A DNA stretch of 64,000 nucleotides from NCBI GenBank assembly GCA_937901925.1, contig CALGTS010000056.1, forward strand, positions 5,102 to 69,101. Direction: 5' to 3'. The first letter of the stretch is position 1. The number at the start of each line of letters is the position of its first letter. The position numbers and the translations under genes were made by a program. Of the stretch, positions 27,901 to 64,000 are shown piece by piece. The notes beneath the pieces are model-generated. The model was not told the DNA's origin and ran no database searches. It was given only the letters and a program-made list of their open reading frames with translations. Source of the DNA: an uncultured Bacteroidales bacterium (GTDB lineage: Bacteria > Bacteroidota > Bacteroidia > Bacteroidales > WCHB1-69).

Positions 27901-28936
27901 CGCTCCAATCTACAGCTTGTGTGCAAGCATTGTCGTAGAACCAGCCTTCAAAGGTATAACCAGTACGAGTTGGATCATTTGATGGTTTTACACTGCTCAT
28001 AGGATCACCAGGGTTAATCATACCTTCTGGAATAGAAGTTGGATTTGTAGCACCATTCAAAACATAAGAAACTTGCAATGCTTCCTCATAAGAGATACGG
28101 ATATAACCATCGCCACCTTTACCGCCAGCATGGTTATTATTAAGGAATACTCTATAACCTGTAGAACCACCTCCGCCTCCGCCATAATTTCCACCTGTTG
28201 CTCCTGAACCAGTACTAGCAATACCATAATAACCCTTTCCTCCGTCTCCTGCGATACCACTCATCTCATCACCTGCTCCTGCACTGCCGCCATCGCCGCC
28301 TTTACCTTGTAGAAGTGTCAAAAAAGTAGCTCCTTCACCATTTCCGCCATTTCCGCCATCACCTTCGGTTCCAGCTGCGCCGCCGCCACCGCCGCCTGCA
28401 GAATATGCGCCATTTTCGTCACCCAGATCTCCATTTCCACCATTTCCACCGCTATATTTGGTTGTTCCGATAGAGTTGGCTGCTTGTCCACCTTGTGCGC
28501 CTTGTGCGTTATTCTTTCCATCAACCGATTTTCCGCCTTCTGCGCTCACAAGAGTAGTGGAACCATTTTTAACAGTTGAATTTTCGCCATCTCTTGCGGT
28601 GCCATTGGGGTTTTCACCGCCTCTTCCCACAGTAACATTAAGAATAGAGCCTGGAATAACGTTAACGGTAGATTTTGCGTATGCACCACCGCCACCGCCA
28701 CCAGTAGGACGTTCTCTATCATGGTCGCCTGCGAATCCGCCTGCGCCGCCTGCGCCCCAAGCCTCAATGGTAATTTGGGTTACGCCAGTAGGTACAGTCC
28801 ATTCTACTGTTGTACCAGCAGCATTAAATTCTGTTACGGTCTGTGCTTGCGCAGTGCCCAAGAACACACAAGAAAAGAAGGTGCAGATTACTACTGCCCA
28901 CGTCTTTTTTGTCAAAAGTCTAAAATTTTTCTTCAT
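24989..28936 (-). CDS. 1315-aa mosaic cell-surface adhesin-like protein (Gly-rich head; 2 Listeria-Bacteroides repeats; SprB-type repeat; Ig/PKD-like and HYR-like modules; 2 C-terminal FISUMP domains)
   Basis: Start trimmed to MKKNFRLLTKKTWAVVICTFFSCVFLGTAQA. Shows ITIEAWGAGGAGG plus ~250 aa of GG-rich sequence. GYTFEGWFYD...ILYAKW occurs twice. VTCYGGNDGKININ is present, with repeated C..G....L.A.G...Y.W modules. DGNVYNTVQIGDQCWMRENL...YGYLYNW...CPDGWHVPS...GYSVRCV occurs twice (TIGR02145-type). No T9SS CTD is present. Confidence 0.8.
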   Translation of the reverse strand: MKKNFRLLTKKTWAVVICTFFSCVFLGTAQAQTVTEFNAAGTTVEWTVPTGVTQITIEAWGAGGAGGFAGDHDRERPTGGGGGGAYAKSTVNVIPGSILNVTVGRGGENPNGTARDGENSTVKNGSTTLVSAEGGKSVDGKNNAQGAQGGQAANSIGTTKYSGGNGGNGDLGDENGAYSAGGGGGGAAGTEGDGGNGGNGEGATFLTLLQGKGGDGGSAGAGDEMSGIAGDGGKGYYGIASTGSGATGGNYGGGGGGSTGYRVFLNNNHAGGKGGDGYIRISYEEALQVSYVLNGATNPTSIPEGMINPGDPMSSVKPSNDPTRTGYTFEGWFYDNACTQAVDWSANCTQTSNFILYAKWTLNQITVHFNTNGGTPTLSDEQIIIGAAMSTVQPATNPTRTGYNFVGWFYDEALTNAVVWSDNCTATTDFTLYAKWESTLAATFDKVKDVTCYGGNDGKININISDGVAPFTYTLTGAETRNDIAALLGDNAVENLAAGSYNITVKDNSGKEVPATPAQITIEQPAEMTAVTLTTNTDLCGTNITEIKMTASGETGYSYTWAVDPAVNTQESGTGNNIMTISNLGTNTTFNYSVTATNAAGCTKTATKTIAIGTAQVEITTTDADLCYGETTTLTANGANISSYEWSTGATTNSITTPAQVVGDQTYSVTITNNSGCTATDDITVTTHAAVETVSGTSYDICSGQGFNYTPSVSSTSLTYTWTIDSNEGVTGVASQSTPTTAPITGSNLVNNSNEIQTVVYEVTPWEGSCSGTPFTVTINVKPSITNATTSFDIADVNITLYYGACDTLYNVPTPTYTTNYEGTLTLSNNASSVNSGTILGRIAPGTYAIVWKLTDECGNSRNYTKNYIVNYPPCGTDLTAIDTDNNTYQTVRIGCECWTKSNLRTTTYSDGSDVAFARAYSSQAYPDTTANKANFGLLYTWYSAVNVAEGNDTAEPEVKTASGSGYPYVQGVCPEGWAIPSMAQYYNAVSTVANIDGMKSTDINKWLPEHAGTDESGFSAVGAGFYNAGLGFESLLGKTWFWSYDQNIHTAQSASIGYYCNEMLNEEQPKGMGFSVRCIKRDSGEDTPTSAQACPGVPTVTDVDGNVYNTVQIGDQCWMRENLKTTKYANGTNIPLGTEESYEVAYRYYPNGSSANVSDYGYLYNWAAVMNGSASSEANPSGVQGICPDGWHVPSDAEWTELTNYVSSQSQYVCGGDEDNIAKALASEEGWNSSTDNCAVGYNPITNNATGFSARPAGTYTGYYYYFGNRAGFWSATQSNSNYAYNRYLYYNFAVVNSNFYNENIGYSVRCVRN

Positions 28937-31663: not shown

Positions 31664-32386
31664 ATGAATTTGGTAATAGATATTGGAAATACTTTGCAAA
31701 AAATTGCCCTTTTCTCAGAGGGTTGTTCAGCACCTATCGTTTATAGTTTCCCAAAAATTGATCTAATAATTTTAGAAAAACTCTTTTCTCAATATAAGAT
31801 TGAGAAATCCATAATATCTTCTGTTGCTTCGTGTGATCCACAAGTAGAAGCTTATCTTGCAGAACATAGTCATTGGGTTGCCTTTTCTGTGAAAAGTAAT
31901 CTTCCGATAAAGATCGATTACGAAACACCCGAAACATTAGGTTTAGATAGAATTGCTAATGCTGTTGGTGCAGCAACGCTATTTCCAAATGAAAATGTAT
32001 TGTCAATACAAGCAGGAACTTGTTTGGTTGCAGATTTTGTGTCTGCTGATGGTACTTATAAAGGTGGTTCTATCTCTCCAGGTTTATTTATGCGATTTCG
32101 GGCACTTCATCATTTTACCCAACGCTTACCCCAAGAATCGTTCTCAGAATTGGAAGACAATATAGGAAGAAATACTCAAACATCAATACAAATAGGTGTA
32201 ATTAAGGGAGTTATATATGAAATAGAGGGAATAATAAATTCATACGAAAATCGTTATAAGGGGTTGAAAACCATACTGACAGGAGGCGATTTGGAGCACT
32301 TGCAGAAGTCAATAAAAAATACGATATTTGCAGCCCCAAATTTAGTCCTTTGGGGTCTGAATAAAATTTTAGAAATTAATGGATAA
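31664..32386 (+). CDS. coaX: type III pantothenate kinase
   Basis: Start trimmed to MNLVIDIGNT (ASKHA phosphate-1 motif). Also shows GLDRIANAVGA and SIQAGTCLVADF. Confidence 0.85.
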   Translation: MNLVIDIGNTLQKIALFSEGCSAPIVYSFPKIDLIILEKLFSQYKIEKSIISSVASCDPQVEAYLAEHSHWVAFSVKSNLPIKIDYETPETLGLDRIANAVGAATLFPNENVLSIQAGTCLVADFVSADGTYKGGSISPGLFMRFRALHHFTQRLPQESFSELEDNIGRNTQTSIQIGVIKGVIYEIEGIINSYENRYKGLKTILTGGDLEHLQKSIKNTIFAAPNLVLWGLNKILEING

Positions 32387-33674
32387 TAAAGTAAATATCA
32401 CGACTTTGTGGATTGTAATTCTGATGCTGTTTTGTGTTACTTTATCAGCGCAAAATGAGATTCAATCTCCCTATTCGAACTTTGGAATTGGTGTGCCAAC
32501 AAATCGTACAAATGGTATGCTAAATTCTATGGGTGGAGTTGCGTATGCAATACAAAGTCCATATTTTGTCAACTTTAAGAATCCTGCTTCTTATGCAGTT
32601 TTTGATTCATTATCTTTTGTTGCGGATGCTAGTATGAGTATCTACTCTACTCACTTGGAAACAGATGAGTTGAGGCAAAAAGGTTCCTTCGCACGCGCCG
32701 ATTATTTGGCTATAGGTTTGCCAATAACTCGTCATTGGCGTACAAGTGTTGGAATTCTTCCTTTTAGTGATTTAGGTTACGATATCACTACGACAAGAAA
32801 TATCGAAAATATTGGTGAAGTAAGGTACGACTATTCAGGTACGGGTGGTCTTGTACAATTTTATTGGGGTAATGCTTTCAAAATTTGCAAAGGGTTATCT
32901 ATAGGATTAAATATCTCTTATCTTTTTGGTAATTTAAATACATTGAATTATGCCTATTTTTCAGGTCAGAATTTTCTAAACTCTCGCGTAGCCAATATTA
33001 ATTATGTGGATGGAATCTATTTAACAGGTGGAATTCAGTACGTAACCAAAATTCAAGAGAAACATACCTTAGGTTTTGGTTTGGTTTACGAAAATTCAGC
33101 CTACGTTTGGACGCGTGAGAACTTGCTTATAAATACCTTTACTGGTAGCGGCTTTAGTGCTTCTACTGCAGTAGATACAGTTGTTTGTCGTTTCGATGAT
33201 GATGCTATTCGGGGTACAGCAAAACTTCCTCAAACTATTGGTGGAGGAATCTCTTATAGCTATAAAGATATTTTGAAAGTAGGAGCTGATGTAACGTGGG
33301 AAAATTGGTCCCGTTTTTCAATGAATAACACTGATTCTAAAATGTTTAAAGACGCCATTATTTCGGCAGTAGGTCTTCAATATATTCCTAATCCAACATC
33401 ACCTAAATATATGAAGCGGATTAATTTTAGAGCAGGAGCTCGATATTCAACAGGATATTTGAATATCAGGAATCAACCGATTCAGGAGTTTTCTGTTGCT
33501 TGTGGAATAGGTTTCCCTATCAGAACTTTCAACTTTAACTCCTCTTTTAATGTGATGTTTGAATATATTCATACCGGAACTACCAAAGAGCAGTTGATAC
33601 AGCAAAACTATTATCGCTTCTCATTTAGTTTTACTCTTTACGAAAAATGGTACCAACGAGTAAAATTAGATTAA
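32379..33674 (+). CDS. putative outer-membrane beta-barrel protein (FadL/PorV-like N-terminal motif)
   Basis: Has a signal peptide, NSMGGVAYAIQSPYFVNFKNPAS near the N-terminus, an amphipathic beta-strand pattern and aromatic-rich strands near the C-terminus. It overlaps coaX by 8 nt. Confidence 0.55.
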   Translation: MDNKVNITTLWIVILMLFCVTLSAQNEIQSPYSNFGIGVPTNRTNGMLNSMGGVAYAIQSPYFVNFKNPASYAVFDSLSFVADASMSIYSTHLETDELRQKGSFARADYLAIGLPITRHWRTSVGILPFSDLGYDITTTRNIENIGEVRYDYSGTGGLVQFYWGNAFKICKGLSIGLNISYLFGNLNTLNYAYFSGQNFLNSRVANINYVDGIYLTGGIQYVTKIQEKHTLGFGLVYENSAYVWTRENLLINTFTGSGFSASTAVDTVVCRFDDDAIRGTAKLPQTIGGGISYSYKDILKVGADVTWENWSRFSMNNTDSKMFKDAIISAVGLQYIPNPTSPKYMKRINFRAGARYSTGYLNIRNQPIQEFSVACGIGFPIRTFNFNSSFNVMFEYIHTGTTKEQLIQQNYYRFSFSFTLYEKWYQRVKLD

Positions 33675-52538: not shown

Positions 52539-52546
52539 TATTTTTG
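52539..52546 (+). promoter_or_regulatory. putative -7 box for the 52618-55810 operon
   Basis: TATTTTTG lies 72 nt upstream of the ATG at 52618. Confidence 0.4.
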
Positions 52547-52617: not shown

Positions 52618-54474
52618 ATGAGAAACTTGAAAAATTTATTGATTTTTGCTCTCGTTGGGCTGATTTTTGCAGGTTGTGGATTCGGAAAGATGATTCCTCG
52701 TTATCCTGATATTACTATGCAATTAGAAAACCCAGATTTGGAAAACAAAGGCGGAAAAGTGGAATATACAGTGAAAGGAACCGTTCCACCTAAATATTTG
52801 AAAAAGAAGGCAAGTATGTTAATTGAGGTGCCTGTTGTAGCTCAAGATAATATGCAAAATCCTGTTTCTTTTAATACCATTAAATTAGTAGGTGAAAAAT
52901 CTAAAGAACAAGGAACAAGAATCTCTTGGAAAAATGGAGGAAAATTCTCAACTTCTGGTTCATTTGATTTTAACCCCAATTACGAAGATCAAAATATTTA
53001 TGCAAAGTCAACCGCTACTTTAGGTAAGAAAACTCACGAATTTCCTGCAGTTTTGTTAGGTGTTGGTATTGCAAATACAAGTTCTCGCGTGGGTATTAAC
53101 CCAACTTTGAGCGATGCTGCTGACAAAAATAAAATTGGTGAAAGCAACGGAACTTTACTACTTTTTGCTCCTCATGATTATAAAGATGAGTCTATTTCTC
53201 AAGTAGCAGATATCTATTTCGAAGTAAATACTTCTACTTTGAATTGGGGATTGAAATTGAATAGAGATAAAGCAGCAAAACAAGTAATTACTGATTTTAA
53301 TAACTTCTTGATGCAAGTACTCGAAGAGGGACGTGGAGTGAAAAAAGTGGCTATTTCTGGTTGGGCTTCTCCAGAAGGTGAAGAGTCTTTGAACCAAGGT
53401 CTTTCTGAAAAGAGATATGAACAAGGTAAAAAATGGTTTGAGCAACAACTAACTACTACAGTTAAAAATTATGCAAGAAAACACAAAATGAAAGTGAAAG
53501 ATGTTGTAGTTCCTGAAATCGTTTTCGATAATCAAGCTAAAGGAGAAGATTGGCAAGGTTTTGAAACAGCAGTTGAAAACTCAACAATCGCTGAAAAGAA
53601 TAAAATTTTAAACGTTGTTCGTTCTCAACCTAATGATAATTTGAGAGAACAAAGAATTAGAGAGATGACCGATATCTATCAAGAAATTGCTGATATTATT
53701 CTTCCTCCATTGAGAAGAGTTGAAATAGACCTTGTATGTAACAAACATTTATATACAGATGCTCAATTAAAAGAGTTGGTAAAAGGTGATTCTGTAAAGC
53801 TTTCTCTTAATGAAAGATTATATGCTGCTTCTCTATATTCAGATTTAACTGACAAAGAAGTTATATACACTGCAATTGTAAATGATGCAGAGTTGCAAAA
53901 TGATTGGAGAGCTTATAACAATTTGGCAATCTTAGCACTTAACAAATATATCGCTGCTGGTGATGCTGCACAATTATCTGTTGCTGCTAACAATCTCGAA
54001 AAAGCACAAGCTATTTCTCCTAATAATGGTATTATTTTCAATAATTTGGCAATCCTCAATTTCTTGAATAACAATATCACAGAAGCACGTGCTAATTTTG
54101 AAAAATCTATAACCGCTTCTTCATATCCTGTAAATCAAGATTATAATATGGGAATGTTCAAAATTTTAGATGGAGATTATGTTGGTGCTGATGCTTTGAT
54201 GAAAAATAGAAGTTGCGAGTATTCAGTAGCTCTTCTTCAATTACTAAATAAAGATTATGCTGCTGCAAAAAATACTTTAGCTTGTACACCAAAGGATGCA
54301 AAAGCTTACTATTTGATGGCAATTCTTGCTGCAAGAACACAGAACGAAGCTGAAGTTTATACGTATCTCGAAAAAGCAGTTTCTTTAGATGCTTCTTATA
54401 AAGCTGCAGCTAAAAAAGATGCTGAATTCAAAAAATATAAAAAATCTGAACAATTTAAAAATATCGTGAAATAA
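52618..54474 (+). CDS. lipoprotein with OmpA-like segment and C-terminal TPR-like repeats
   Basis: Lipobox LIFAGC. ISGWASPEGEESLNQGLSEKRYEQG resembles the OmpA_C peptidoglycan-binding core (SPEG..N..LS..R). The C-terminal ~200 aa show A/Y/L TPR-like periodicity. Confidence 0.55.
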   Translation: MRNLKNLLIFALVGLIFAGCGFGKMIPRYPDITMQLENPDLENKGGKVEYTVKGTVPPKYLKKKASMLIEVPVVAQDNMQNPVSFNTIKLVGEKSKEQGTRISWKNGGKFSTSGSFDFNPNYEDQNIYAKSTATLGKKTHEFPAVLLGVGIANTSSRVGINPTLSDAADKNKIGESNGTLLLFAPHDYKDESISQVADIYFEVNTSTLNWGLKLNRDKAAKQVITDFNNFLMQVLEEGRGVKKVAISGWASPEGEESLNQGLSEKRYEQGKKWFEQQLTTTVKNYARKHKMKVKDVVVPEIVFDNQAKGEDWQGFETAVENSTIAEKNKILNVVRSQPNDNLREQRIREMTDIYQEIADIILPPLRRVEIDLVCNKHLYTDAQLKELVKGDSVKLSLNERLYAASLYSDLTDKEVIYTAIVNDAELQNDWRAYNNLAILALNKYIAAGDAAQLSVAANNLEKAQAISPNNGIIFNNLAILNFLNNNITEARANFEKSITASSYPVNQDYNMGMFKILDGDYVGADALMKNRSCEYSVALLQLLNKDYAAAKNTLACTPKDAKAYYLMAILAARTQNEAEVYTYLEKAVSLDASYKAAAKKDAEFKKYKKSEQFKNIVK

Positions 54475-55259
54475 TGAGCGCTGATCTTTTAAAGAAGCTC
54501 AGCCGCCATCAAGAGTGGGATGAAGCTCCCGTTTTCTGCTTCACCACCGATATTGATTGGGCATCAGAAGCTGTCATTTCTCAATTCTTGAAATCCTTAC
54601 CGATACAAGAGCTGAAAATGACAGCTTTTGTTACTCATTTTTCCCCTATTATCGAAGAATTATATGCCACAAAAGTTTGGGATAGAGGTATTCACCCTTT
54701 TTTCTTAAAAGGATCTTCACATGGAGATAATTTTAAAGAGATAATCGAAAATTGTATAGCATTTGCCCCAGAAGCTGAGTCCGTACGTTCGCATCGCCTT
54801 TATAATGTTTCTGATACTGCCCATCTACTATTTAACGAATTTGGTTTTCGATATTGTTCTAATACTATTATGACATTGTCAAGCCATATTCGACCCTATC
54901 TGCACGAATCTAAAATGATTGATATCCCTATATTTTGGGAAGAGGGAACGGCTCTCTATAATCAGTTGGGACTTTCTATAGAACCTTATTTAGGTTATTT
55001 TACTTCTCCAGGATTGAAAGTGATTAGTTTTCATCCCATAAATGTTGTTTTTAATACACCAGAAATTGCATGGATGCGTAAAATAAAAGATTCTATGAGC
55101 AGAGAGGAGTATAACCAAATCTCTTCTGAATCTATTCTAAAAAATAGAAATAATGCTATAGGAATCTACCATACAATTATGGAAATTGTAAATCTTGTAA
55201 AACAGAAAAATTATAAAATATTGTCTCTAAAGGAGATTTATAACAATATAGTAAATTAA
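54474..55259 (+). CDS. hypothetical protein, possibly deacetylase-fold (WbmS-like)
   Basis: The ATG overlaps the upstream TAA (TAATG). There is no signal peptide. FTTDIDWASE resembles a NodB/glycoside-hydrolase-deacetylase-type N-terminal Asp motif. The assignment is from memory only. Confidence 0.35.
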   Translation: MSADLLKKLSRHQEWDEAPVFCFTTDIDWASEAVISQFLKSLPIQELKMTAFVTHFSPIIEELYATKVWDRGIHPFFLKGSSHGDNFKEIIENCIAFAPEAESVRSHRLYNVSDTAHLLFNEFGFRYCSNTIMTLSSHIRPYLHESKMIDIPIFWEEGTALYNQLGLSIEPYLGYFTSPGLKVISFHPINVVFNTPEIAWMRKIKDSMSREEYNQISSESILKNRNNAIGIYHTIMEIVNLVKQKNYKILSLKEIYNNIVN

Positions 55260-55261
55260 TT

Positions 55262-55810
55262 ATGAGAGTTTTAGAGAGTGATAGAATAGTGCTAAAACCA
55301 ATTGAAGAAGAGGATTTGCCACTCCTATTAGAATTGCGTTGGGACGAAACACTGACTGATTATCTGATTCATAACCCTATTTCAATGGTACATCAAAAAA
55401 AATGGTTCGAAAAGGTGTATAAAAATGGAGATTTGGCGCTTTCTATATTCTATAAAGAGAATGAGCAATTGAGACATATTGGACTGATAGGTCTTTATGA
55501 TTTCAATCAAAGACATCGTCGTGCAACTTGGAAATCGTTACGGATTATTCCTGAATATCAAGGAAAAGGTATTGCTATGGAAGCATCGTTGATGTTATTG
55601 GACTATGGTTTTAATACCTTAAATCTACATAAGATAACATCAGATTCTTTTGAAGAAAATAGTTCAATTCTCAAACTTTTGGAAAAATTGGGCTTTAAGA
55701 GAGAAGGAGTACTTATAGAACACTATTTTCATCAGGGAAAATATAAGAATGCAGTGATTCATAGTGTTCTGAGAGAGGAATTTAATGAGAAATTTAAATG
55801 CAATAAGTAA
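55262..55810 (+). CDS. GNAT-family N-acetyltransferase (RimJ/RimL-like)
   Basis: 182 aa with an acetyl-CoA motif A-like RIIPEYQGKGIAMEA. It starts 3 nt after the upstream stop. Confidence 0.75.
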   Translation: MRVLESDRIVLKPIEEEDLPLLLELRWDETLTDYLIHNPISMVHQKKWFEKVYKNGDLALSIFYKENEQLRHIGLIGLYDFNQRHRRATWKSLRIIPEYQGKGIAMEASLMLLDYGFNTLNLHKITSDSFEENSSILKLLEKLGFKREGVLIEHYFHQGKYKNAVIHSVLREEFNEKFKCNK

Positions 55811-55887
55811 AAAAGATATTCGTTATTTAACCTTTGGAAGAATTTGTTGTCATACAATTATGAATTCAAAATAAAAGGAGGTTCATT

Positions 55888-57705
55888 ATGAAAAAGTTAA
55901 TGTTATTATTCGCAGTTGTATTATTTTCCTCTTGTCAAATAGGTACTTTTGTTTATTATGATGACATTTATACCTCAACAAGGGATGAACAATACAGAAG
56001 ACCAATACCAGAAGAAAATACTAATACATACACGGAAGCACAAAATTATAATTCGTATCCAAATGATACGCAAAATAATTACAATGATAATAGTTCAGAA
56101 TATTATTACGAAGGTAATTCTGGTTATAATGATGAGGGATATTCCGAAAGTTACTATGATGAAAATGGTAATACGTATGTAACCAACAATTATTACTATG
56201 ATTCTGATGATTACTACGACTATTACTATACAAGTCGTATCCGTCGTTTCCATACCAATGTTTATGATGGTTGGTCGTATTATGACCCCTATTTCACAAA
56301 TATGTATTGGTATGATTATAGTCCAGCAAGTTGGGGTTGCAGTATCTATTTAGGTTACAATTGGTGGTGGCCAACCTATTACTATCGTCCTTATTACTAC
56401 GATTGGGGCTATTATAACTATGGTTTCTGCTACGGATGGGGCTGGGATTGCCACCGTCCATATCACCATCATCACCACCACCACTATTACTCAGGCTATA
56501 ACCATGGTTATTATCACGGTTTTAATGATGGATATTATGCAGGCTTTAATGCGGGTTATTATCATAATAATTTCGATAGTAATCACTCCTTCTATTATGG
56601 CCATCGTAATAATGTTATTGCATCGAATAGTGTTCGCAGACCATTAATCACTGAAGATAAAGAGAATGACGGAAGAGAGAATGGTGCATCTTCTTCTCGT
56701 TCTGTTCTTCCTACAACCTTCAATGAAAATTATGCTACCCTTGTTGCTAACACACCTAATATGACTACCTCGTCAGGAAGAACAAATAAGATAGAAAATA
56801 CAACGTCAACTTTAGACAGAATTCCTAATACCTCCAATAATGTAGGAGTAAAGGAACCTACCAATAGTGTAAATAATAATGCAGCTAACAAACAACCTGC
56901 AAATACCAATACTCGCCCTGCTTACAATACAAATTCTAGTAATACAAGTAATAAGCAACCTGTAAATACAGGAAATCGAGTAAATCCGAATAGCACTAGT
57001 AATAAGCAACCTGCTACTCCAACTTATAACAATAATACGGGTGGTAAACAACCTGCAAATACCAATACTCGTCCTACTTACAATACTAATTCTAGTAATA
57101 CAAGTAATAAGCAACCTGCAAATGCAGGAAATCGAGTAAATCCGAATAGTACTAGTAATAAGCAACCTGCTACTCCAACTTATAACAACAATACGGGTGG
57201 TAAACAACCTGCAAATACCAATACTCGCCCTACTTACAATACTAATAGTAATAAGCGACCTGCAAATACTACCACAACACGACCTTCTAACACTAGTAAA
57301 CCATCAAGCACATCAGGATCTTATACTCGTCCGACAAATCAAAATAGTTCAAATAGACCTACAAATAGTAACAATAGTCGTCCTACTTATAACAATAGTA
57401 CTAGTAATAAGCAACCGGCTAGCACGCGACCATCTAATAATTCGTACAATAATCGACCCTCTAATAGTAGTGCGCGACCTGCCAATACCAATTCGTACAA
57501 CAATAAGCCATCAGGAACAAGTAGAGGTAGTTCATACAATAGCAGTTCAAGACCTTCTAGTAATAGTAGTTCTTATAGCCGTTCTTCAGGCAGTTCTTCA
57601 AATCGTAGCAGTTATTCATCATCATCCAATCGCAGTTCCTCTTCTAGTAGCACAAGAGGCAGTAGTTCGTCAAGTTCAAGAAGTAGTTCACATAGTAGAA
57701 GATAG
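55888..57705 (+). CDS. extreme low-complexity lipoprotein (Tyr/Trp/Gly/Asp/Asn-rich, His7 run, N/T/S/P tandem repeats, poly-Ser basic tail)
   Basis: Lipobox VLFSSC. Contains YYYDSDDYYDYYY, NWWWPTYYYRPYYYDWGYYNYG and HHHHHHH, then repeats of KQPANTNTRPTYNTNSSNTSNKQPANAGNRVNPNSTSNKQPATPTYNNNTGG. It ends in SSSSRSSSHSRR. Confidence 0.65.
   Translation: MKKLMLLFAVVLFSSCQIGTFVYYDDIYTSTRDEQYRRPIPEENTNTYTEAQNYNSYPNDTQNNYNDNSSEYYYEGNSGYNDEGYSESYYDENGNTYVTNNYYYDSDDYYDYYYTSRIRRFHTNVYDGWSYYDPYFTNMYWYDYSPASWGCSIYLGYNWWWPTYYYRPYYYDWGYYNYGFCYGWGWDCHRPYHHHHHHHYYSGYNHGYYHGFNDGYYAGFNAGYYHNNFDSNHSFYYGHRNNVIASNSVRRPLITEDKENDGRENGASSSRSVLPTTFNENYATLVANTPNMTTSSGRTNKIENTTSTLDRIPNTSNNVGVKEPTNSVNNNAANKQPANTNTRPAYNTNSSNTSNKQPVNTGNRVNPNSTSNKQPATPTYNNNTGGKQPANTNTRPTYNTNSSNTSNKQPANAGNRVNPNSTSNKQPATPTYNNNTGGKQPANTNTRPTYNTNSNKRPANTTTTRPSNTSKPSSTSGSYTRPTNQNSSNRPTNSNNSRPTYNNSTSNKQPASTRPSNNSYNNRPSNSSARPANTNSYNNKPSGTSRGSSYNSSSRPSSNSSSYSRSSGSSSNRSSYSSSSNRSSSSSSTRGSSSSSSRSSSHSRR
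56890..57250 (+). repeat. 156-bp in-frame tandem repeat, ~2.3 copies
   Basis: Unit starts (AAA CAA CCT GCA AAT ACC) lie at 56890, 57046 and 57202, giving a period of exactly 156 nt (52 codons). I counted ~8 mismatches between copies 1 and 2. Confidence 0.85.
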
Positions 57706-57719
57706 TTAAAAGAAATGCT

Positions 57720-59165
57720 ATGAAAAAGATAATATTAATAGTTTGTTTGACAATAAGTTCGCTATTCATTTTTGCGCAGAGTGAAATGGATGCGTTCCGT
57801 TTTTCCAATTTGGATTGGCAAGGGAGTGCACGTTTTATGGGCGCAGGAGGTGCTTTTGGTGCCGTTGGAGGTGATTTTTCAGCAGTGAGCACTAATCCAG
57901 CTTCACTAGGTGTTTTTAAGAAATCTTCTTTCTCTGTTACTCCCATTCAACTCTCTTTTAATAATGTAGCTTCTCGTTTTATGGATAATACCAATCTCTA
58001 TACAACAACTAAATACACGATGTCAAGTGCGGGATTTGTTTGGGTATTGGGAAATATAGACAATACGCGTTGGGAGCAGTTTCAATTTGCGTTTGGTTAC
58101 AATAGAATAGCCGATTTTAATCAAAGAAAATTTATAGTAGATGGTGAAAGTAATAGTTCGATTGGAATGCATTTCGCTGATTTAGCAAATGGTTACGCAC
58201 CCAAAGATATGATTGATGAGGCTTTGTTTGCTTGGGAATCCTATTTGATTGACCCAACGGATGTTTCAAATCTTCAATATGGCTATCTGCATAATGATGC
58301 CGTTATGAATCAACGTTATTCCGTAACAACAAATGGTGGAATTGACGAGATGACAATTTCAGTAGGCTCTAATTGGGATAACAAACTCTATTTAGGCGCA
58401 ACTATGGGAGTGCCCTTTATCAGCTACTCAGAATATTCCAGATATGTAGAGAAAGATGAGTATAATCAAATTCCTATCTTTCAAGAATTAACAGTAAAAG
58501 ATAATTTGAAAATTAATGGAATAGGAATTAATTTAAAATTAGGGTTATTGTATCAGCCTGCCAAATTTGTAAGATTTGGCATAGCATTCCATACGCCGAC
58601 ATACTACGGAAAATTAAAGTATAATCTTACTCGTGATATGAGTTCGATAGGGGATAGTGCCTCTGTTGAAAAAGACTTTACTAACTTTAATTATTTCAAA
58701 TTGGTTACACCAATGCGGGCGATGTTTAATACTGCCTTTTTAATTAAAAAGCGTGCGTTTATTAGTGCAGAATATGAAATTGCAAATTATGGAGCAGCGC
58801 GACTATCACCCTATATTTATTTTGATGATTATACATATTCTGCTGAAAATCAGCAAATCCGTGAGGCGTTAAAAGTGTCGCACATAGCAAGAGTTGGTGC
58901 AGAAGTTAATTTGACGGAGAAATTTCTAATCCGTGCTGGGTATAAATTTCAGTCATCACCCTATAAGGATAAAAGTTTAAGAGCTTCGTGTCAAAGCATC
59001 TCTGCAGGATTAGGTTATAGAGGTAAACATTTTGCTTTTGATGTAGCATATATTTATGCCACTTCAGGCGAAAAATTCTGGTTCTATAATCCTCAGTATG
59101 TTGAGGAATCAATATTGAAGTACTCCTCCCATAGAATTGCACTTTCTTGCGAATTTAAATTCTAA
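57720..59165 (+). CDS. outer-membrane beta-barrel protein, FadL/PorV-like
   Basis: Signal peptide ...SLFIFAQS, N-terminal ARFMGAGGAFGAVGGDFSAVSTNPASLG motif, alternating beta-strand pattern and C-terminal CEFKF. It starts 14 nt after the upstream stop. Confidence 0.6.
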   Translation: MKKIILIVCLTISSLFIFAQSEMDAFRFSNLDWQGSARFMGAGGAFGAVGGDFSAVSTNPASLGVFKKSSFSVTPIQLSFNNVASRFMDNTNLYTTTKYTMSSAGFVWVLGNIDNTRWEQFQFAFGYNRIADFNQRKFIVDGESNSSIGMHFADLANGYAPKDMIDEALFAWESYLIDPTDVSNLQYGYLHNDAVMNQRYSVTTNGGIDEMTISVGSNWDNKLYLGATMGVPFISYSEYSRYVEKDEYNQIPIFQELTVKDNLKINGIGINLKLGLLYQPAKFVRFGIAFHTPTYYGKLKYNLTRDMSSIGDSASVEKDFTNFNYFKLVTPMRAMFNTAFLIKKRAFISAEYEIANYGAARLSPYIYFDDYTYSAENQQIREALKVSHIARVGAEVNLTEKFLIRAGYKFQSSPYKDKSLRASCQSISAGLGYRGKHFAFDVAYIYATSGEKFWFYNPQYVEESILKYSSHRIALSCEFKF

Positions 59166-59185
59166 AAGTGTAATAATAAAGATGA

Positions 59186-59218
59186 AGAGATTTGGCAGTT
59201 GTCAAGTCTCTTTTTTTT
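59186..59218 (+). terminator. rho-independent terminator
   Basis: AGAGATTTG-GCAGTTGT-CAAGTCTCT is a 9-bp stem with one G-U pair, followed by T8. It lies 20 nt after the stop at 59165. Confidence 0.65.
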
Positions 59219-59253
59219 GTTCATTTTGAAATGAAAACATCGATTTTATAATA

Positions 59254-59261
59254 TATCTTTG
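59254..59261 (+). promoter_or_regulatory. putative -7 box for the giant surface-protein gene
   Basis: TATCTTTG lies 75 nt upstream of the ATG at 59337. Confidence 0.4.
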
Positions 59262-59336: not shown

Positions 59337-62300
59337 ATGATGAAAAAAATTCAAATTTTCTGCACCTTTCTATTTGTTATAATGTTAGCTTGGAATTTGC
59401 AGGCTCAAACGTGTTTCTATACTATTAACATGCGAGACTTGTATGGTGACGGCTGGGGAGACCTTTATTTGGAAATTAAGCAAGGAGGAACCCCTATAGG
59501 GACTTTTACTTTTGAAAATGGATATAGTTCTACGCAAACACTTCCTATTACCCATGGTTTACAATACACAATTCATTGGCATCAAGCAGCGTATGCTAGT
59601 GAGGCAAGTTTTGAAATACTAGATGTTTTAGGAAATATTGTTTACATTTGTTCCGATGCACAGAATTTAGGTAATGGCCAAATTTTCTCGTTTTATGGTA
59701 ACTGCTCAGGATGTGTTCCGACAACCACCAATTTTGTTTCAGTAAATCAGAACTCAGCAACTATTAGCTGGAATTCGACAGAAGCTTCTCAGTACCAGAT
59801 AGCTATTGGTACGTCAGAGCCAGATACTCTAAATCCATATTTAGTGCAAGATACATTTTACATTTTTACGGGATTAATGTCTGAAACGACTTATAATGTA
59901 AGTTTGCGTGCGGTTTGTGATGTTTCTACAAATGATTATAGTGAATGGACAACATTCTCTTTTACAACATCACAAGCACCAGCATCAATGCCATTTATAT
60001 GCGATTTTGAAAATGCTGTTGAGGCAGCGCAATGGGAATTGGCAAATGGAACGGAAACCAATCAGTGGAGAATTGGAACAGCGGTGAATCACACAGAAGA
60101 TGGTCAAAATGCACTATATATTTCGAAAGATAATGGATTAACGAATAGTTATGATACAACAGCAGTAAGTTCAGTATATGCCTATCGTGACATCAATTTT
60201 CCTACTACTACAAATGATTTCCTCTTTTCGTTTTATTGGAAAAACCAAGGAGAATCTGTTTATTGTGAGCCTATAAAAGTGTATGTTGGTGATGTTTCTC
60301 CAGTTCAGGCAGGAGAAGGTGACTATTATTTGGAAATTCCAGGTACAACATTATTAGGAACTTTCTATGGAAATGGTGCAGAATGGACTCACGAAACCTT
60401 TGTTTTGGATGCCGAAGAGTATGCAGGCTCTGTGCGTAGAATCTATTTCTTCTTTTATAGTGATGCTGCTAATGGTAGAAATCCAGCGCCAGCCATTGAC
60501 GATATTATATTGAAGGAGATTATCTGCCCTGAGGTGGATTCTGTTCAAATTTCTGAAATAAGCAATAACTCAGTGCGTATTACTCCTTATTCAGATCCTT
60601 CGGTTACTGCTTATATGCTTTATTACAAAACATTATCAGATGTTACCTATTCTGTTGTAAGCATTCCAAGTGAGGGTTATACACTAACAGGTTTAACTCC
60701 AGGGACAAGATATCAATATTATTTAACTACTGATTGTGGTAACGAAGAATATGGTTTACCAACGCCAGATTCCTATTTTTATACACTTTGTGATGTTGTT
60801 TATACCTTCCCTTGGATAGAGAATTTTGAGGGAGAATGGTTTCCCGCAACAAGTACGGCAGGAAATGAAAGTGCGCCAATGTGTTGGTTAAACTTTAACT
60901 ATGGGACAACACCAGGTCAATGGGAATTAAAACATTACGAATCTGTATCTGGTAATAGTTGTGCAAGTATGTTTGGAACAATGAGTAATGATAATGAAGA
61001 TGTGAATAATGATTGGCTTCTTACACCCATTCTTTCATTAACAGGAAATGAACGTTTGAATTTCTTTGTGAAGAAATCGCATTTGAGTTATACAGATGAT
61101 TTCAGCATATATTCAGTTTTTGTAGGAAATGGTGATGTAACCAATTTCGATGATGTATTAGCAAATGCTTATTGTATTAAACCTTCGACAATTGCTACAG
61201 ACGAGTGGGTAGCTTATGAGTTATCTTTGGGTGCTTGTATAGGCGATTATCGACTAGCATTTGTAAGAGATGCGTTACCAGGTGGTTCCCAACTCTTTAT
61301 CGATTCTGTTGTCGTTTCTACAATGCCGACATGTCCTGATGTTTATCATGTGGAGGTAAATCCTGCTAGTGAAACAAGTATTGCTGTCAATTTTTCGGTA
61401 GATAATGCAACGGGACAAGGTTGGGAAATTGCGTATGCACCTACAGGAGATGAACCTTTCGATGAGGTAACAGCAACGGTTGTGTCTGTTGATTATTCTT
61501 CATCATTTCCAATCATTATTGAAAATTTGCAACCCAATATCTCTTATACTTTTGCTGTAAGACAAGCATGTAATGGAGATTGGAGTGATACTATTGTTTG
61601 TACGATTCCTTTTATGAATCTCCAACAATTGCCATTTGAATGTGATTTTGAAAGTGAAGATGAGAATAGCACTTGGGTAATGGCGCAAGATAGTAATTTG
61701 ACGAATAGATGGTACATTGGAACCGCAGCTGCTAGCCAAGGTGTTAAATCTTTATATATCTCTAAAAACGATGGACTTACTAACGAATATGTAACCAATG
61801 AGTCTAGTTTGGTTGTTGCATACGTGGATCTTGCGATGACTGAAGCAGAACAATATTTATTTTCTTTCGATTGGAAATGTGTGGGAGAAGGATATTATGA
61901 TGATTTGAGCGTTTGCTTGCTACCCTTAAGTATTTCACTTGATAACTTGAATCCTAATGGAGCACTTCCTGCTTGGGTGGAGAGGTATAAATTAGCTAAC
62001 AATAGTTATAAGTTATCTACTTCTGATACTTATCGTACAGTTACTGCTATTATTGATGCAGAGAATATTAAGGGAACCGTAAGAAGATTGGCGTTCATTT
62101 GGAAAAATGATGGTTTTAGCGGAAGTGGCTACGCTGCATCAGTTGATAATATCAGTGTAACCCCTATTACTTGTCATATTCCTTCAAATGTTGTCGTAGC
62201 GCCTGGTGCCACCGATGCCATTGTATCGTGGGCAAGTACAGCAAGAGAGTGGCTTATTAGTTATCGTATAGGATCGGAAGATTGGACAGAAGTTCAAGTA

Positions 62301-64000
62301 AGTGAAAATCAAATTGTTTTGGATGGTTTGCAGGCAGAAACAGACTATCAGTTATTTGTACGCACACTTTGCGATGCAGATACAAGTTTTGCAAGTGAAT
62401 TGATAGAATTTACAACATTATGTATGCCAGATAGTATTCCTTATTTTGAAGATTTTAATGACCTTCCAGCTCCTGATTTTTCTGTAAATGTACTACCAAA
62501 CTCCTGCTGGAAAGTAGCAAATGGCTCTTTAGATGCTTATTCATTACTATCATACGATGTTGCTTTCTCTTTCTGGATGCCACAAAATTCAGAAATGGTA
62601 GCGGGAATGGAAGAACATTTTGGAGGTTCTATTTCTAGTACTAACAAACAATGGCTTATTACGCCACTAATTAATTTGGGTGACGGAAGTCAACTTTATC
62701 AGTTGGAATTGGATTTGATGTTGACAGGATATAACTTAAATGATGCTATTTCTACCAACAATTATGATGATGAATTTGCAATTGTAATTTCTACAGATAA
62801 TGGAGCTACTTGGTCAAGAGATAATGCTTTTATTTGGAGTAATGCACCGCAAAGCGATCGAGTGTTGAATGATTTGGCTGGAAGTGTAAATCATATTATT
62901 ATTCCTCTAGAAAATCAGAATAATGAGCCTTATATGAATAATATAATGATAGCTTTTTATATCGGTTCTTCAACTTACAATGCAACAAATACCATTAGAA
63001 TTGACAATTTTGCTATCAATCCATATACAGTTTGTACTCGTCCTGAGAATTTAATGGTTACAGATGTTCAAAACAATGAGATCTCCATTTCTTGGCAGGC
63101 AGGTGCTGACGAGATGGCTTGGCAAGCTATTATTGTTCCAGAAGGTGCTTCCATTGAGAATGAAATTCCTGTTGATATTTATGATACGACCTATACCTTC
63201 TTTAATCTGGAACCTAATACAGAATATACAATCTATTTGCGTTCTGATTGTGGTTATGATCAAAGTTTGTATATCACTACATCAGCCGTTACAGAGTGTG
63301 CAACAGTAAATACAATGCCATTTATAGAAAATTTTGAGGAATATGAAACAGAAGAATATCCGATTTGTTGGCAGAGAATTTCTGCAACGACAACACTTAC
63401 AACCTCGCCTTCTGTAACCACTTTCGGAGGTGTATCTGGAAGCAATGCTTTGCGGTTCTATTCCTCTACAACTCCTATTTATGCTTTGTTGCCAGAATTG
63501 GATTTTACACTACCCGTTAATACACTACAAGTCACGTTCAAGGCAAAATCTTCAAATAATTCAGTTACTCCAATTCTTGTAGGAGTAATGGATTCTGTAA
63601 GTGGAAGTTCCTTTGTTGCTGTAGATACAATTGAACTTACTGCGCAATATTCAGCATATCATGTAAGTTTTGAAAACTATACAGGTACAGGTAAATATAT
63701 TGCATTCAAACATCACGATACAAGTTTTGGTTATGATGAAACCTATATTGATGAGGTTTTTGTAGATTTTCTCCCTAATTGTAATACGCCTCAATCGTTG
63801 GCCGTTTCTGGAATAAGAGCTGATAGGGCTACTATGTCTTGGACAGATGCAGAAGATATTACGACTTGGAATATTATCGTGGTTGAAGGAACAGAAGTTG
63901 CAGATTTCTCCGATTATACCATAGTGAATACCAATAGTTATGAGTTGGAAGAACTTCAATCTAACACCTCTTATGTAATTTATTTGCGTAGTGTTTGTCC
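59337..64000 (+). CDS. giant modular surface protein, 5' part (>1550 codons, runs off the window): signal peptide, GDGW module, then at least 5 alternating choice-of-anchor-J/cleaved-adhesin-like and Fn3-like modules
   Basis: Absent from the ORF track because there is no in-window stop. My translation from ATGATGAAAAAAATT is open to 64000. It begins with MMKKIQIFCTFLFVIMLAWNLQAQ. Recurrent motifs are P(F/Y)xE(N/D)FE, (N/K)xxWLxTPxxxL, IDx(I/V/F)xV and Fn3-like blocks (SISWQAG...TEYTIYLRSDC, ATMSWTD...TSYVIYLRSVC). Confidence 0.8.
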   Translation, partial: MMKKIQIFCTFLFVIMLAWNLQAQTCFYTINMRDLYGDGWGDLYLEIKQGGTPIGTFTFENGYSSTQTLPITHGLQYTIHWHQAAYASEASFEILDVLGNIVYICSDAQNLGNGQIFSFYGNCSGCVPTTTNFVSVNQNSATISWNSTEASQYQIAIGTSEPDTLNPYLVQDTFYIFTGLMSETTYNVSLRAVCDVSTNDYSEWTTFSFTTSQAPASMPFICDFENAVEAAQWELANGTETNQWRIGTAVNHTEDGQNALYISKDNGLTNSYDTTAVSSVYAYRDINFPTTTNDFLFSFYWKNQGESVYCEPIKVYVGDVSPVQAGEGDYYLEIPGTTLLGTFYGNGAEWTHETFVLDAEEYAGSVRRIYFFFYSDAANGRNPAPAIDDIILKEIICPEVDSVQISEISNNSVRITPYSDPSVTAYMLYYKTLSDVTYSVVSIPSEGYTLTGLTPGTRYQYYLTTDCGNEEYGLPTPDSYFYTLCDVVYTFPWIENFEGEWFPATSTAGNESAPMCWLNFNYGTTPGQWELKHYESVSGNSCASMFGTMSNDNEDVNNDWLLTPILSLTGNERLNFFVKKSHLSYTDDFSIYSVFVGNGDVTNFDDVLANAYCIKPSTIATDEWVAYELSLGACIGDYRLAFVRDALPGGSQLFIDSVVVSTMPTCPDVYHVEVNPASETSIAVNFSVDNATGQGWEIAYAPTGDEPFDEVTATVVSVDYSSSFPIIIENLQPNISYTFAVRQACNGDWSDTIVCTIPFMNLQQLPFECDFESEDENSTWVMAQDSNLTNRWYIGTAAASQGVKSLYISKNDGLTNEYVTNESSLVVAYVDLAMTEAEQYLFSFDWKCVGEGYYDDLSVCLLPLSISLDNLNPNGALPAWVERYKLANNSYKLSTSDTYRTVTAIIDAENIKGTVRRLAFIWKNDGFSGSGYAASVDNISVTPITCHIPSNVVVAPGATDAIVSWASTAREWLISYRIGSEDWTEVQVSENQIVLDGLQAETDYQLFVRTLCDADTSFASELIEFTTLCMPDSIPYFEDFNDLPAPDFSVNVLPNSCWKVANGSLDAYSLLSYDVAFSFWMPQNSEMVAGMEEHFGGSISSTNKQWLITPLINLGDGSQLYQLELDLMLTGYNLNDAISTNNYDDEFAIVISTDNGATWSRDNAFIWSNAPQSDRVLNDLAGSVNHIIIPLENQNNEPYMNNIMIAFYIGSSTYNATNTIRIDNFAINPYTVCTRPENLMVTDVQNNEISISWQAGADEMAWQAIIVPEGASIENEIPVDIYDTTYTFFNLEPNTEYTIYLRSDCGYDQSLYITTSAVTECATVNTMPFIENFEEYETEEYPICWQRISATTTLTTSPSVTTFGGVSGSNALRFYSSTTPIYALLPELDFTLPVNTLQVTFKAKSSNNSVTPILVGVMDSVSGSSFVAVDTIELTAQYSAYHVSFENYTGTGKYIAFKHHDTSFGYDETYIDEVFVDFLPNCNTPQSLAVSGIRADRATMSWTDAEDITTWNIIVVEGTEVADFSDYTIVNTNSYELEELQSNTSYVIYLRSVC

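Follow-up and report, generated by a model that had tools for sequence, protein, structure and literature searches.

What do two adjacent genes do when one encodes a lipoprotein of extreme composition and the other an outer-membrane β-barrel, and do their products work together? The question is raised by positions 55,888 to 59,165 of a 64,000-nucleotide (nt) stretch of contig CALGTS010000056.1, from an uncultured Bacteroidales bacterium; we refer to the whole stretch as the window and to the two genes as A and B. A preliminary description of the locus had proposed that the barrel anchors or exports the lipoprotein, regarded as disordered, which could form an adhesive, matrix-like or metal-binding coat. 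In our reading, A and B make up a two-gene envelope module that Bacteroidota inherit vertically. The genes point the same way, are only rarely apart and evolve under purifying selection. For its function we tentatively favor, at somewhat less than an even chance, an outer-membrane complex in which barrel B would dock the N-terminal head of A, by analogy with the docking of BamH by BamG, and the C-terminal tail of A would act as a polycationic tether or spacer. The pair is not described in any paper found by full-text literature searches. It is laid out as follows:

55888..57705, + strand: gene A, an open reading frame (ORF) of 605 amino acids (aa) for a bipartite envelope protein, the first example here of an unnamed family
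57706..57719, + strand: A-B spacer, 14 nt from the stop codon of A to B
57720..59165, + strand: gene B, an ORF of 481 aa for a FadL-superfamily outer-membrane barrel
59184..59223, + strand: terminator-like hairpin (13 pairs at 59184-59213) and T-run, 3' of B, closing the pair

The 605-aa lipoprotein ORF, its composition and residue runs, the 52-aa repeats, the poly-Ser basic tail and the 14-nt gap are all present as first described, and the hairpin with its T-run corresponds to the terminator originally placed at 59186-59218. A terminator scan of the window found none between A and B. Judging by its length, the 14-nt spacer has no room for a Bacteroidetes -33/-7 promoter or a terminator.

The A-B pair is conserved across Bacteroidota

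About 245 loci were retrieved from species-representative genomes with three queries (A, B and a divergent A alignment), keeping the best 80 loci per query. All ORFs in these loci were scored against hidden Markov models (HMMs) of A and B, and duplicate genes were removed. B lies directly downstream of A, on the same strand, in 163 of the 174 distinct A genes (94%) that have enough downstream sequence, out of 189 in total. Conversely, A is directly upstream in 168 of 197 distinct B genes (85%), the 197 being those of 201 with enough upstream sequence. The proposal that the two genes form a unit is borne out by these counts, and barrel homologues are recurrently preceded by A-type proteins; the barrel is not an ordinary FadL without a partner, and A has many conserved homologues. 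The spacer between the genes has a median length of 49 nt (interquartile range 31-86), compared with 14 nt in the window.

The pair spans metagenome-assembled genomes (MAGs) labelled Bacteroidales, Lentimicrobiaceae, Vicingaceae, Flavobacteriales and others, and the link is kept where the flanking genes differ, as between the window and locus L002 on one side and loci L005-L007 on the other. All of the retrieved loci come from metagenome-assembled or uncultured-organism genomes (rumen, gut, digesters and freshwater), and the habitats of the A family comprise rumen, gut, freshwater, groundwater and digester MAGs. The closest public relative, a Bacteroidetes MAG (L001), has a B protein 92% identical to that of the window. 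Between these two, the ratio of nonsynonymous to synonymous substitution rates (dN/dS) is 0.08 for the head of A, 0.14 for its linker, 0.18 for its low-complexity tail and 0.09 for B. Because dN/dS is low and intact homologues occur in about 190-200 distinct loci, A and B are real genes under purifying selection, not chance ORFs.

Split pairs belong mainly to a clade from rumen and horse gut, and in these cases B is usually found on another contig of the MAG that has A. By MAG name, nine such A/B locus pairs were matched: L010/L098, L024/L106, L017/L119, L018/L126, L031/L108, L015/L115, L045/L089, L027/L105 and L016/L122. Among these nine, the A contigs of L016 and L027 stop before any downstream gene.

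A different explanation for the synteny is that A and B are independent core envelope genes whose neighborhood merely reflects an inherited gene order, like that of A and proS. A divergent proS lies upstream of A in 100 of 113 loci and is about as conserved as the A-B adjacency; since the two rival each other, synteny alone is no proof of function. In about 11 distinct loci that have A without B downstream, B has moved off and A is still beside proS, and 29 of the 197 B genes have no A upstream. A and B evolve at similar and fast rates, with mean Kimura distances of 1.21 and 1.28 versus 0.32 for ProRS. Their distances remain correlated when ProRS is controlled for (partial Mantel r(A,B|ProRS) = 0.35, p = 0.001), a modest value that is below r(B,ProRS|A) = 0.59; the divergence of B thus follows ProRS more strongly than it follows A. 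On the other side, A and B share one direction, their spacers are short and no terminator separates them, whereas proS is divergent. The pair is also intact where proS synteny is lost, namely in the window lineage, L001 and L002, and both genes are kept in genomes where they are separated. We consider the absence of any coupling improbable.

We clustered the neighbors of about 170 loci, and only proS and scattered housekeeping genes recur; an Aas-like gene follows B in 13 loci. Three loci of the rumen clade in which B is elsewhere carry a stop-to-stop ORF of about 155-196 codons after A (L010, 6672-7136; L017, 6995-7558; L018, 7400-7987). Its product is an apparent small, very acidic lipoprotein ending in DYDEFD(S/A)TR, which, as an acidic neighbor of a polycationic tail, might be a replacement partner. 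The MAG UBA1205 contains two A-B pairs (L035 and L039), about 60% identical. They were ruled out as true paralogues, as a separate proS and a separate exonuclease gene lie upstream of either pair; because both loci carry these genes, the bin probably mixes two organisms.

Protein A combines a conserved aromatic head with a cationic tail

Gene A divides into the following segments, all on the + strand:

55888..55935, + strand: signal peptide and lipobox (LFSS followed by C16); mature start CQIGTFV, no acidic export signal after the Cys
55936..56187, + strand: acidic segment, aa 17-100, Y/N/T/E/D-rich, net charge -13
56188..56622, + strand: conserved aromatic core, aa 101-245, 38% Y/W/F
56464..56484, + strand: His7 run, aa 193-199, within the variable part of the core; lineage-specific
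56623..56787, + strand: linker, aa 246-300, with the short conserved helix motif TFNENYATL (family consensus SFGxKYExA)
56788..57447, + strand: cationic low-complexity region, aa 301-520 (N 25%, T 18%, S 13%, P 11%), net charge +21
56890..57246, + strand: tandem duplication of a 156-nt (52-aa) unit, 2.3 copies, 96% matches (Tandem Repeats Finder)
57448..57702, + strand: Ser-rich, Arg-punctuated tail, aa 521-605 (52% Ser, 13% Arg), net charge +12, ending in ...SSSHSRR

The protein starts with MKKLMLLFAVVLFSSC, in which Cys16 completes the lipobox. In the acidic segment lie the conserved YYDDIY motif, at aa 23-28, and the larger part of the NGNTYVTNNYY hairpin; the hairpin spans aa ~89-104 and extends a few residues into the aromatic core. 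Within the core, the motifs DDYYDYxYxSRIRRFH and GYYDPYFTNxYWYDYxPxxWGxSIYLGYNWWWP are followed by a variable stretch rich in G/W/Y, by (NGYY)n and by YHNNFDSNHSFYYGHR. YYY runs occur at residues 102, 112, 164 and 169 of the core, WWW at 159 and the His7 run at 193-199; a further YYY lies before the core, at residue 72. The cationic region is made of short repeats containing (K/R)QP and RP. The 156-nt duplication is recent. The protein has 605 aa in the window versus 519 aa in its close relative L001; the tail therefore evolves by repeat gain and loss.

An exhaustive profile search, following a word-indexed one, found 2003 representatives of the A family at E<=1e-3; under stricter limits the number falls to 1049 (E<=1e-10) and 398 (E<=1e-30), each representative standing for a cluster at 50% identity. 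The full-length A protein has no Pfam match at E<=0.1 and no NCBIfam match, and 31 relatives compared with Pfam at E<=10 gave no consistent match. A profile of A against the Protein Data Bank (PDB) returned nothing significant, the best hit being an unrelated protein at E = 0.51. In agreement with the preliminary description, which could not name a family, A as judged by these searches belongs to an unnamed family with no curated counterpart.

The family is more ordered in sequence than had been thought. Protein A had been described as having almost no ordinary sequence and as disordered. This does not hold for its N-terminal ~250 aa, which on the evidence of the alignments are a strongly conserved signature of a large family. 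When 31 diverse members are aligned, their first ~250 residues show the same motifs in a fixed order. The series begins with YDD(I/V)Y near the mature start, followed by the (D/E)NGNTY(V/I)TNNYY hairpin and DDYYDYxYxSRIRRF(H/Y). The series continues in the core with GYYDxYYTNxYWYxYxPxxWGxSIYxGYNWWxP, a variable G/W/Y stretch, repeats of the NGYWNGYYDGYY type and YYNSYDxNSYYYG(H/P)R; past the linker it closes with the short SFGxKYExA helix. Ten positions are invariant among the 31: D111, R117, R120, F121, T137, S152, P191, Y237, G238 and R240.

Past the head the sequence is unconserved and its properties are conserved. Of 133 full-length members, all have a net negative head (median -10) and 131 have a net positive C-terminal part (median +18), which has a median length of 256 aa and consists of S/T/N/Q/P/G to about 61%. 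The family end is Ser/Gly-rich and closes with two or three basic residues: at least two of the last four residues are basic in 110 of 133 members, and the terminal residue is Arg in 90. The His7 run behaves differently. L001 has HHHHNH at this position, and runs of at least four His occur in 23 of 225 relatives (~10%). His7 was on this account ruled out as a family-defining metal site, and the proposed metal binding does not extend to the family as a trait.

An AlphaFold2 (AF2) model of residues 1-300, built from the 31-sequence alignment, has a predicted local distance difference test score (pLDDT) of 46.5 overall and below 40 in the conserved core. Its only well-scored parts are the NGNTY hairpin (pLDDT ~76) and a helix at 278-288 (pLDDT ~74). 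At the alignment depth used, the head is conserved yet not confidently foldable alone in this model. The model is compatible with a head that may need a partner to fold: the extreme aromatic content, the strict conservation and the lack of a confident stand-alone fold would all fit a head that is structured only against a partner or a membrane interface.

Many of the public A-family proteins (P0121-P0220) are fragments cut within the repeat region, where contigs break. The only public contig with the exact B protein of the window (L247) has just a 168-residue partial ORF upstream of B, and a search with a 75-aa consensus of the core gave three matches, all fragments. Because contigs break in the repeat region and leave fragments, the A family is likely under-called and mis-called in MAG annotation.

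Protein B is a distinct member of the FadL superfamily

The N-terminal region of B, on the + strand, carries two features:

57720..57776, + strand: signal peptide, cleaved after ...IFA and before Q20 (site inferred); the mature N-terminal Gln is invariant
57777..57926, + strand: N-terminal hatch, aa 20-69, reading Q(S/N)(E/D)xDAFRFS ... GSARFMGAGGAFGAVG ... NPA, with the NPA codons at 57894-57902

B contains ARFMGAGGAFGAVGGDFSAVSTNPAS. Its mature N-terminus is highly conserved (Q20, D24, A25, R27, F28 and S29), and across 40 relatives the hatch has 13 invariant residues: Q20, A25, S29, G35, R38, F39, A45, F46, G50, S54, N59, P60 and A61. The hatch segment aligns to that of TbuX. B scores 38.1 bits against Pfam Toluene_X (PF03349; cut-off 29.7, E = 8.6e-10), and most of its relatives carry a precomputed PF03349 assignment. 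The AF2 model of B has a pLDDT of 84.4 and a predicted TM-score of 0.80. It has 14 strands by count of DSSP strands, a helical loop of 50 aa (within residues 145-195), and a break at residues 133-135 in the third strand by the same count, which may correspond to the S3 kink of FadL. With Foldseek, the top 27 PDB matches of this model are all FadL, TodX, TbuX, CymD or BamG (target-normalized TM-score, TMt, 0.55-0.67; E down to 1.7e-16). They include EcFadL, BtBamG (9hiv_F, 0.66), FjBamG (9n2d_B, 0.61) and PgBamG (9hjm_F), at identities of 11-14%. A profile of B against the PDB reaches TbuX and a FadL homologue from P. aeruginosa, both at E = 1e-3, as well as PorV at 0.076.

B was originally called a FadL/PorV-like barrel. 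The FadL half of this label is upheld by the Toluene_X and Foldseek matches, whereas the PorV half is not: B was ruled out as PorV or PorQ by scores below the NCBIfam cut-offs (PorV_fam 46.5 versus 90, PorQ 38.1 versus 220, PorV2 17.6 versus 325). PorV and PorQ are, like B, FadL-like barrels specific to Bacteroidota; they bind other proteins, and they give the best NCBIfam matches of B, through its C-terminal strands: the models NF033709 and NF033711 match only the C-terminal ~70 aa. PorV is outside the top 50 Foldseek matches. [quoted passage not shown] B was also ruled out as an orthologue of BamG (Bt4367, Fjoh_1412, PgBamG), as the three solved BamGs (9hiv_F, 9n2d_B, 9hjm_F) gave no sequence match to it by phmmer at E<=1 or with a 40-sequence profile at E<=10.

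With FadL, TodX and TbuX, B shares a Pfam score above gathering, the fold and the hatch GxxR...NPA with its invariant NPA. It differs in having ~12-14% identity and in being ~60 aa longer, with the 50-aa helical loop. B is thus a distinct subfamily of the FadL superfamily that keeps the hallmarks of a functional hatch and is not PorV, PorQ or BamG.

These hallmarks raise the question whether B is a working FadL-type importer of hydrophobic or aromatic compounds, for which A would capture, buffer or hand over the substrate, its aromatic head acting as a sponge. B has the Pfam score and fold for this role, the NPA of its hatch is invariant, and its conserved charged residues were read from the DSSP topology as mostly lining the barrel lumen; the same reading places Y371, E376 and N377 in an extracellular loop helix. 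Tyr/Trp-rich surfaces in general bind hydrophobic ligands and glycans, and in a minority of loci B is followed by an AMP-binding/PP-binding/acyltransferase (Aas-like) gene and ompH. The Aas-like neighbor is found in only ~5-10% of loci, and uptake leaves the conserved polycationic tail and the terminal RR unexplained. We also know of no FadL system with a partner of this kind, or with an obligate link to a partner gene as in B. We regard uptake as an unlikely role of the pair.

Sorting signals suggest a periplasm-facing protein A

A lipobox pattern is present in the window protein (LFSS-C16) and in 91 of 133 full-length A relatives, and these are predicted to be lipidated. The other 42 have signals of the signal-peptidase-I type, whose cleavage leaves a QDD(F/G)Y N-terminus. 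Surface lipoproteins of Bacteroidota carry a position-critical export signal, C-X-K-(D/E)2-X, with K/Q and then at least two D/E within +2..+6 of the Cys (PMC5080379). None of the 91 lipidated members has two or more D/E at +1..+6 (89 have none and two have one). The T9SS C-terminal domain (Por_Secre_tail, PF18962) was not detected in A by Pfam, in a search that finds it in the window protein at 19039-20121; A was on this basis ruled out as T9SS cargo. By the known rules, A is probably a periplasm-facing outer-membrane lipoprotein or, in the non-lipidated third, a periplasmic protein. We lean towards a periplasmic tail because there is no surface-export signal and one third of the family is not lipidated.

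The earlier proposal of a surface coat has to be judged against these data. In such an arrangement the barrel would thread or anchor A, and the cationic repeat tail would form an exposed brush or adhesive on anionic lipopolysaccharide or capsule. Both characterized FadL-like partner barrels of Bacteroidota fit it, as BamG and PorV hold surface-exposed proteins. So does the repeat region, which is hypervariable in length and sequence (a 96% identical duplication; 605 versus 519 aa), as is typical of exposed regions. There is also a conserved acidic motif, YDDxY, near the mature N-terminus of A, at +2..+5 (QDDFY) in the non-lipidated members. The sorting signals speak against it: the lipoprotein export signal is missing from all 91 lipidated members, 42 of 133 members lack a lipobox, and Pfam detects no T9SS domain. 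In addition, the barrels of known FadL structures are plugged by the hatch and are not, as far as we are aware, protein conduits, and the many habitats and housekeeping neighbors suggest that A belongs to the core envelope and is not an adhesin for one niche. We consider a surface coat unlikely, to about the same degree as uptake. A may nevertheless be exported through its partner barrel by a route not yet described.

A more specific form of surface exposure would be a fibre of the curli or Fap kind, in which the imperfect Y/G/N-rich repeats of A polymerize outside the cell and B is a dedicated secretion or nucleation pore. The N/G/Y-rich head, the NGY(Y/W)xG repeats and the Q/N-rich oligopeptide repeats of some members (e.g. 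L006) resemble prion-like or amyloid sequences, and the pair is a two-gene unit with an outer-membrane barrel. But B has a plugged FadL fold, not a channel of the CsgG or FapF type, and A is mostly lipid-anchored. Conservation in A peaks in a block of unique motifs without repetition rather than in a repeat array, and no chaperone or nucleator genes recur in the neighbor clusters. Pfam gave no match to the curlin or Fap families in A. Of the explanations considered here, a fibre is the least probable and seems very unlikely.

A model in which B docks the head of A

The closest precedent for the complex that we favor is BamG, a non-transporting FadL homologue that holds the conserved N-terminus and the lipid anchor of the lipoprotein BamH. 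The conserved N-terminus of BamH is wedged at the barrel, where it touches the conserved N-terminus of BamG; a paralogue, BamG2, forms one putative operon with BamH2 (Bt1785-Bt1786) (PMC12578637, PMC12611786). Like BamG-BamH, the A-B pair joins a 14-strand barrel of the FadL fold to a cognate lipoprotein, has highly conserved mature N-termini in both proteins, and matches in the fold of its barrel (TMt 0.66 for BtBamG and 0.61 for FjBamG). It differs in several respects. There is no sequence-level similarity between B and BamG, with structural-alignment identities of 11-13%. The N-terminal extension of BamG is 10-12 residues relative to FadL and threads the lateral opening, whereas B aligns only ~5 residues longer than TbuX. 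A shows no fold or match of the BamH kind and is without the surface-export signal found on BamH-K; its gene comes first in the pair. Finally, BamG is reported to be universal in the phylum, whereas A-B was retrieved from MAG lineages only. A second FadL-like barrel that binds proteins is PorV, which like PorQ serves as shuttle and anchor in the T9SS and holds its cargo; it too is an analogy for the docking.

For the tail, the nearest comparison is with tethering lipoproteins. LpoA, LpoB, LpoP, the N-terminus of Pal, and Lpp combine an outer-membrane lipid anchor with a long flexible stretch, in Lpo and Pal a disordered periplasmic linker, and the length of this stretch is important for contact with the wall or the inner membrane. 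A has the same two elements, and Lpp, like A, ends in basic residues. In Lpo and Pal the linker leads to a functional globular domain at its distal end, whereas the conserved part of A is membrane-proximal and its distal end is just the Ser/Arg tail. Lpp has a Lys for covalent attachment, whereas the terminal residue of A is mostly Arg, and the two share no sequence similarity. We know of no report of Lpp in Bacteroidota.

The composition of A has parallels elsewhere. Self-associating proteins of the FUS type, with prion-like and RGG regions, also hold Tyr-rich and Arg-rich low-complexity blocks in one chain, as A does with its Tyr/Gly/Asn-rich and Arg/Ser/Gly-rich blocks. Extracellular loop 3 (EL3) of Bacteroidota BamA is Tyr/Gly/Asn-rich (13 Tyr in 38 residues) and flexible, and its function is not known (PMC12578637). 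In both cases the likeness is compositional only, as the head of A has fixed, position-specific motifs. Such a Tyr/Gly/Asn-rich composition may recur among outer-membrane components of this phylum.

Put together, the model would work as follows. A and B would be co-transcribed, and the two proteins would assemble into an outer-membrane complex with B as the membrane docking partner for the head of A. The tail would remain free, in our leaning on the periplasmic side, where its ~300 flexible cationic residues could bind peptidoglycan or anionic lipids. It could thereby tether the outer membrane to the cell wall non-covalently, or keep the two at a distance as a spacer. By our estimate, ~300 cationic, Pro-containing residues could plausibly reach peptidoglycan or inner-membrane lipids. 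The orientation of the tail, periplasm or surface, is the least secure step and close to a coin-flip.

Several observations weigh against the docking model. The order of A and proS is as well conserved as that of A and B, and in the eleven or so loci noted above A has stayed beside proS while B has moved off. The co-divergence of A and B is modest and below that of B with ProRS. The transcript that covers the pair in the window may be longer and include five genes (see below). The low AF2 confidence of A may simply stem from the shallow 31-sequence alignment. B may be a transporter and not just a platform, because of its invariant NPA, the strand-3 break and the conserved residues placed in an extracellular loop. 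Finally, a surface location would be just as compatible with the hypervariable repeats and with the precedents of BamG and PorV.

Genomic surroundings of the pair in the window

The following features flank the pair:

52618-55810, + strand: three packed co-directional genes 5' of A, for a lipoprotein, a deacetylase and an acetyltransferase
55876..55881, + strand: putative AGGAGG Shine-Dalgarno-like box, 6 nt ahead of the ATG of A
59254-59261, + strand: Bacteroidetes -7 box TATCTTTG, ahead of the next gene (59337-63998)

The exact Bacteroidetes -7 box (TAnnTTTG) was not found by a pattern scan of the 77-nt spacer before A (55811-55887). A sigma-70-type promoter scan is uninformative for Bacteroidota. 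The upstream block encodes a TPR/OmpA-like lipoprotein of 618 aa, then, with an overlap of 1 nt, a WbmS-like polysaccharide deacetylase and, after a gap of 2 nt, a GNAT acetyltransferase, in the same order in L001 and L002. The sole exact TAnnTTTG on the + strand immediately ahead of this block is at 52539-52546, and the next one lies within the first gene of the block. Because the only -7 box just ahead of the block is at 52539, A-B in the window lineage could, judging from these motifs, belong to a longer five-gene transcript.

Directly past the terminator, the gene at 59337-63998 (+) runs off the end of the window. Its product is secreted, has 1,554 aa or more, and contains at least five fibronectin-III domains and a purple-acid-phosphatase-N-like domain; the adjacency of this gene to A-B is not kept in relatives. 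Two further proteins of the window are one of 1,315 aa (24992-28936, -), which combines Fib_succ_major, Listeria-Bacteroides repeat, PKD-like and Gly-rich domains, and a 431-aa secreted protein (32379-33671, +), whose signal peptide ends in ...LSAQNEI. The latter has no Pfam match and is negative with the B-family HMM.

Implications for the envelope of Bacteroidota

FadL-like barrels of Bacteroidota have recently been recognized as protein-docking platforms and not lipid channels alone, BamG in the β-barrel assembly machinery and PorV in the T9SS, and our analysis suggests that the A-B locus is a third such barrel-partner pair. A FadL-like barrel with a cognate partner protein is already known in Bacteroidota; what is new here is the partner, A, and B represents an unnamed FadL subfamily. 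The design of the partner is unusual, with a conserved head whose core is 38% aromatic followed by ~300 cationic, disordered residues.

In its boldest form, the model would make A a new kind of envelope protein. An acidic Tyr/Trp head would be clamped to a dedicated FadL-like barrel, and a disordered Arg/Lys/Ser tail would form a length-tunable, non-covalent connection from the outer membrane to the cell wall, or else a gel-like layer driven by Tyr-Arg contacts. We hold this to be doubtful, somewhat more so than a surface coat or uptake. If it were true, many mostly uncultured Bacteroidota would organize their periplasm or surface by a principle not yet described.

The module may have been overlooked if model Bacteroidota lack the pair, a possibility raised by the fact that every locus among the best 80 per query comes from a MAG or an uncultured-organism genome. 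Defining A would add a family of at least 1,000 clusters, without a Pfam entry, to the annotation of these genomes. The pair, known from hundreds of mostly uncultured Bacteroidota, is probably a part of their cell envelope that has not yet been studied, and defining A-B could show how these organisms connect or space their outer membrane.

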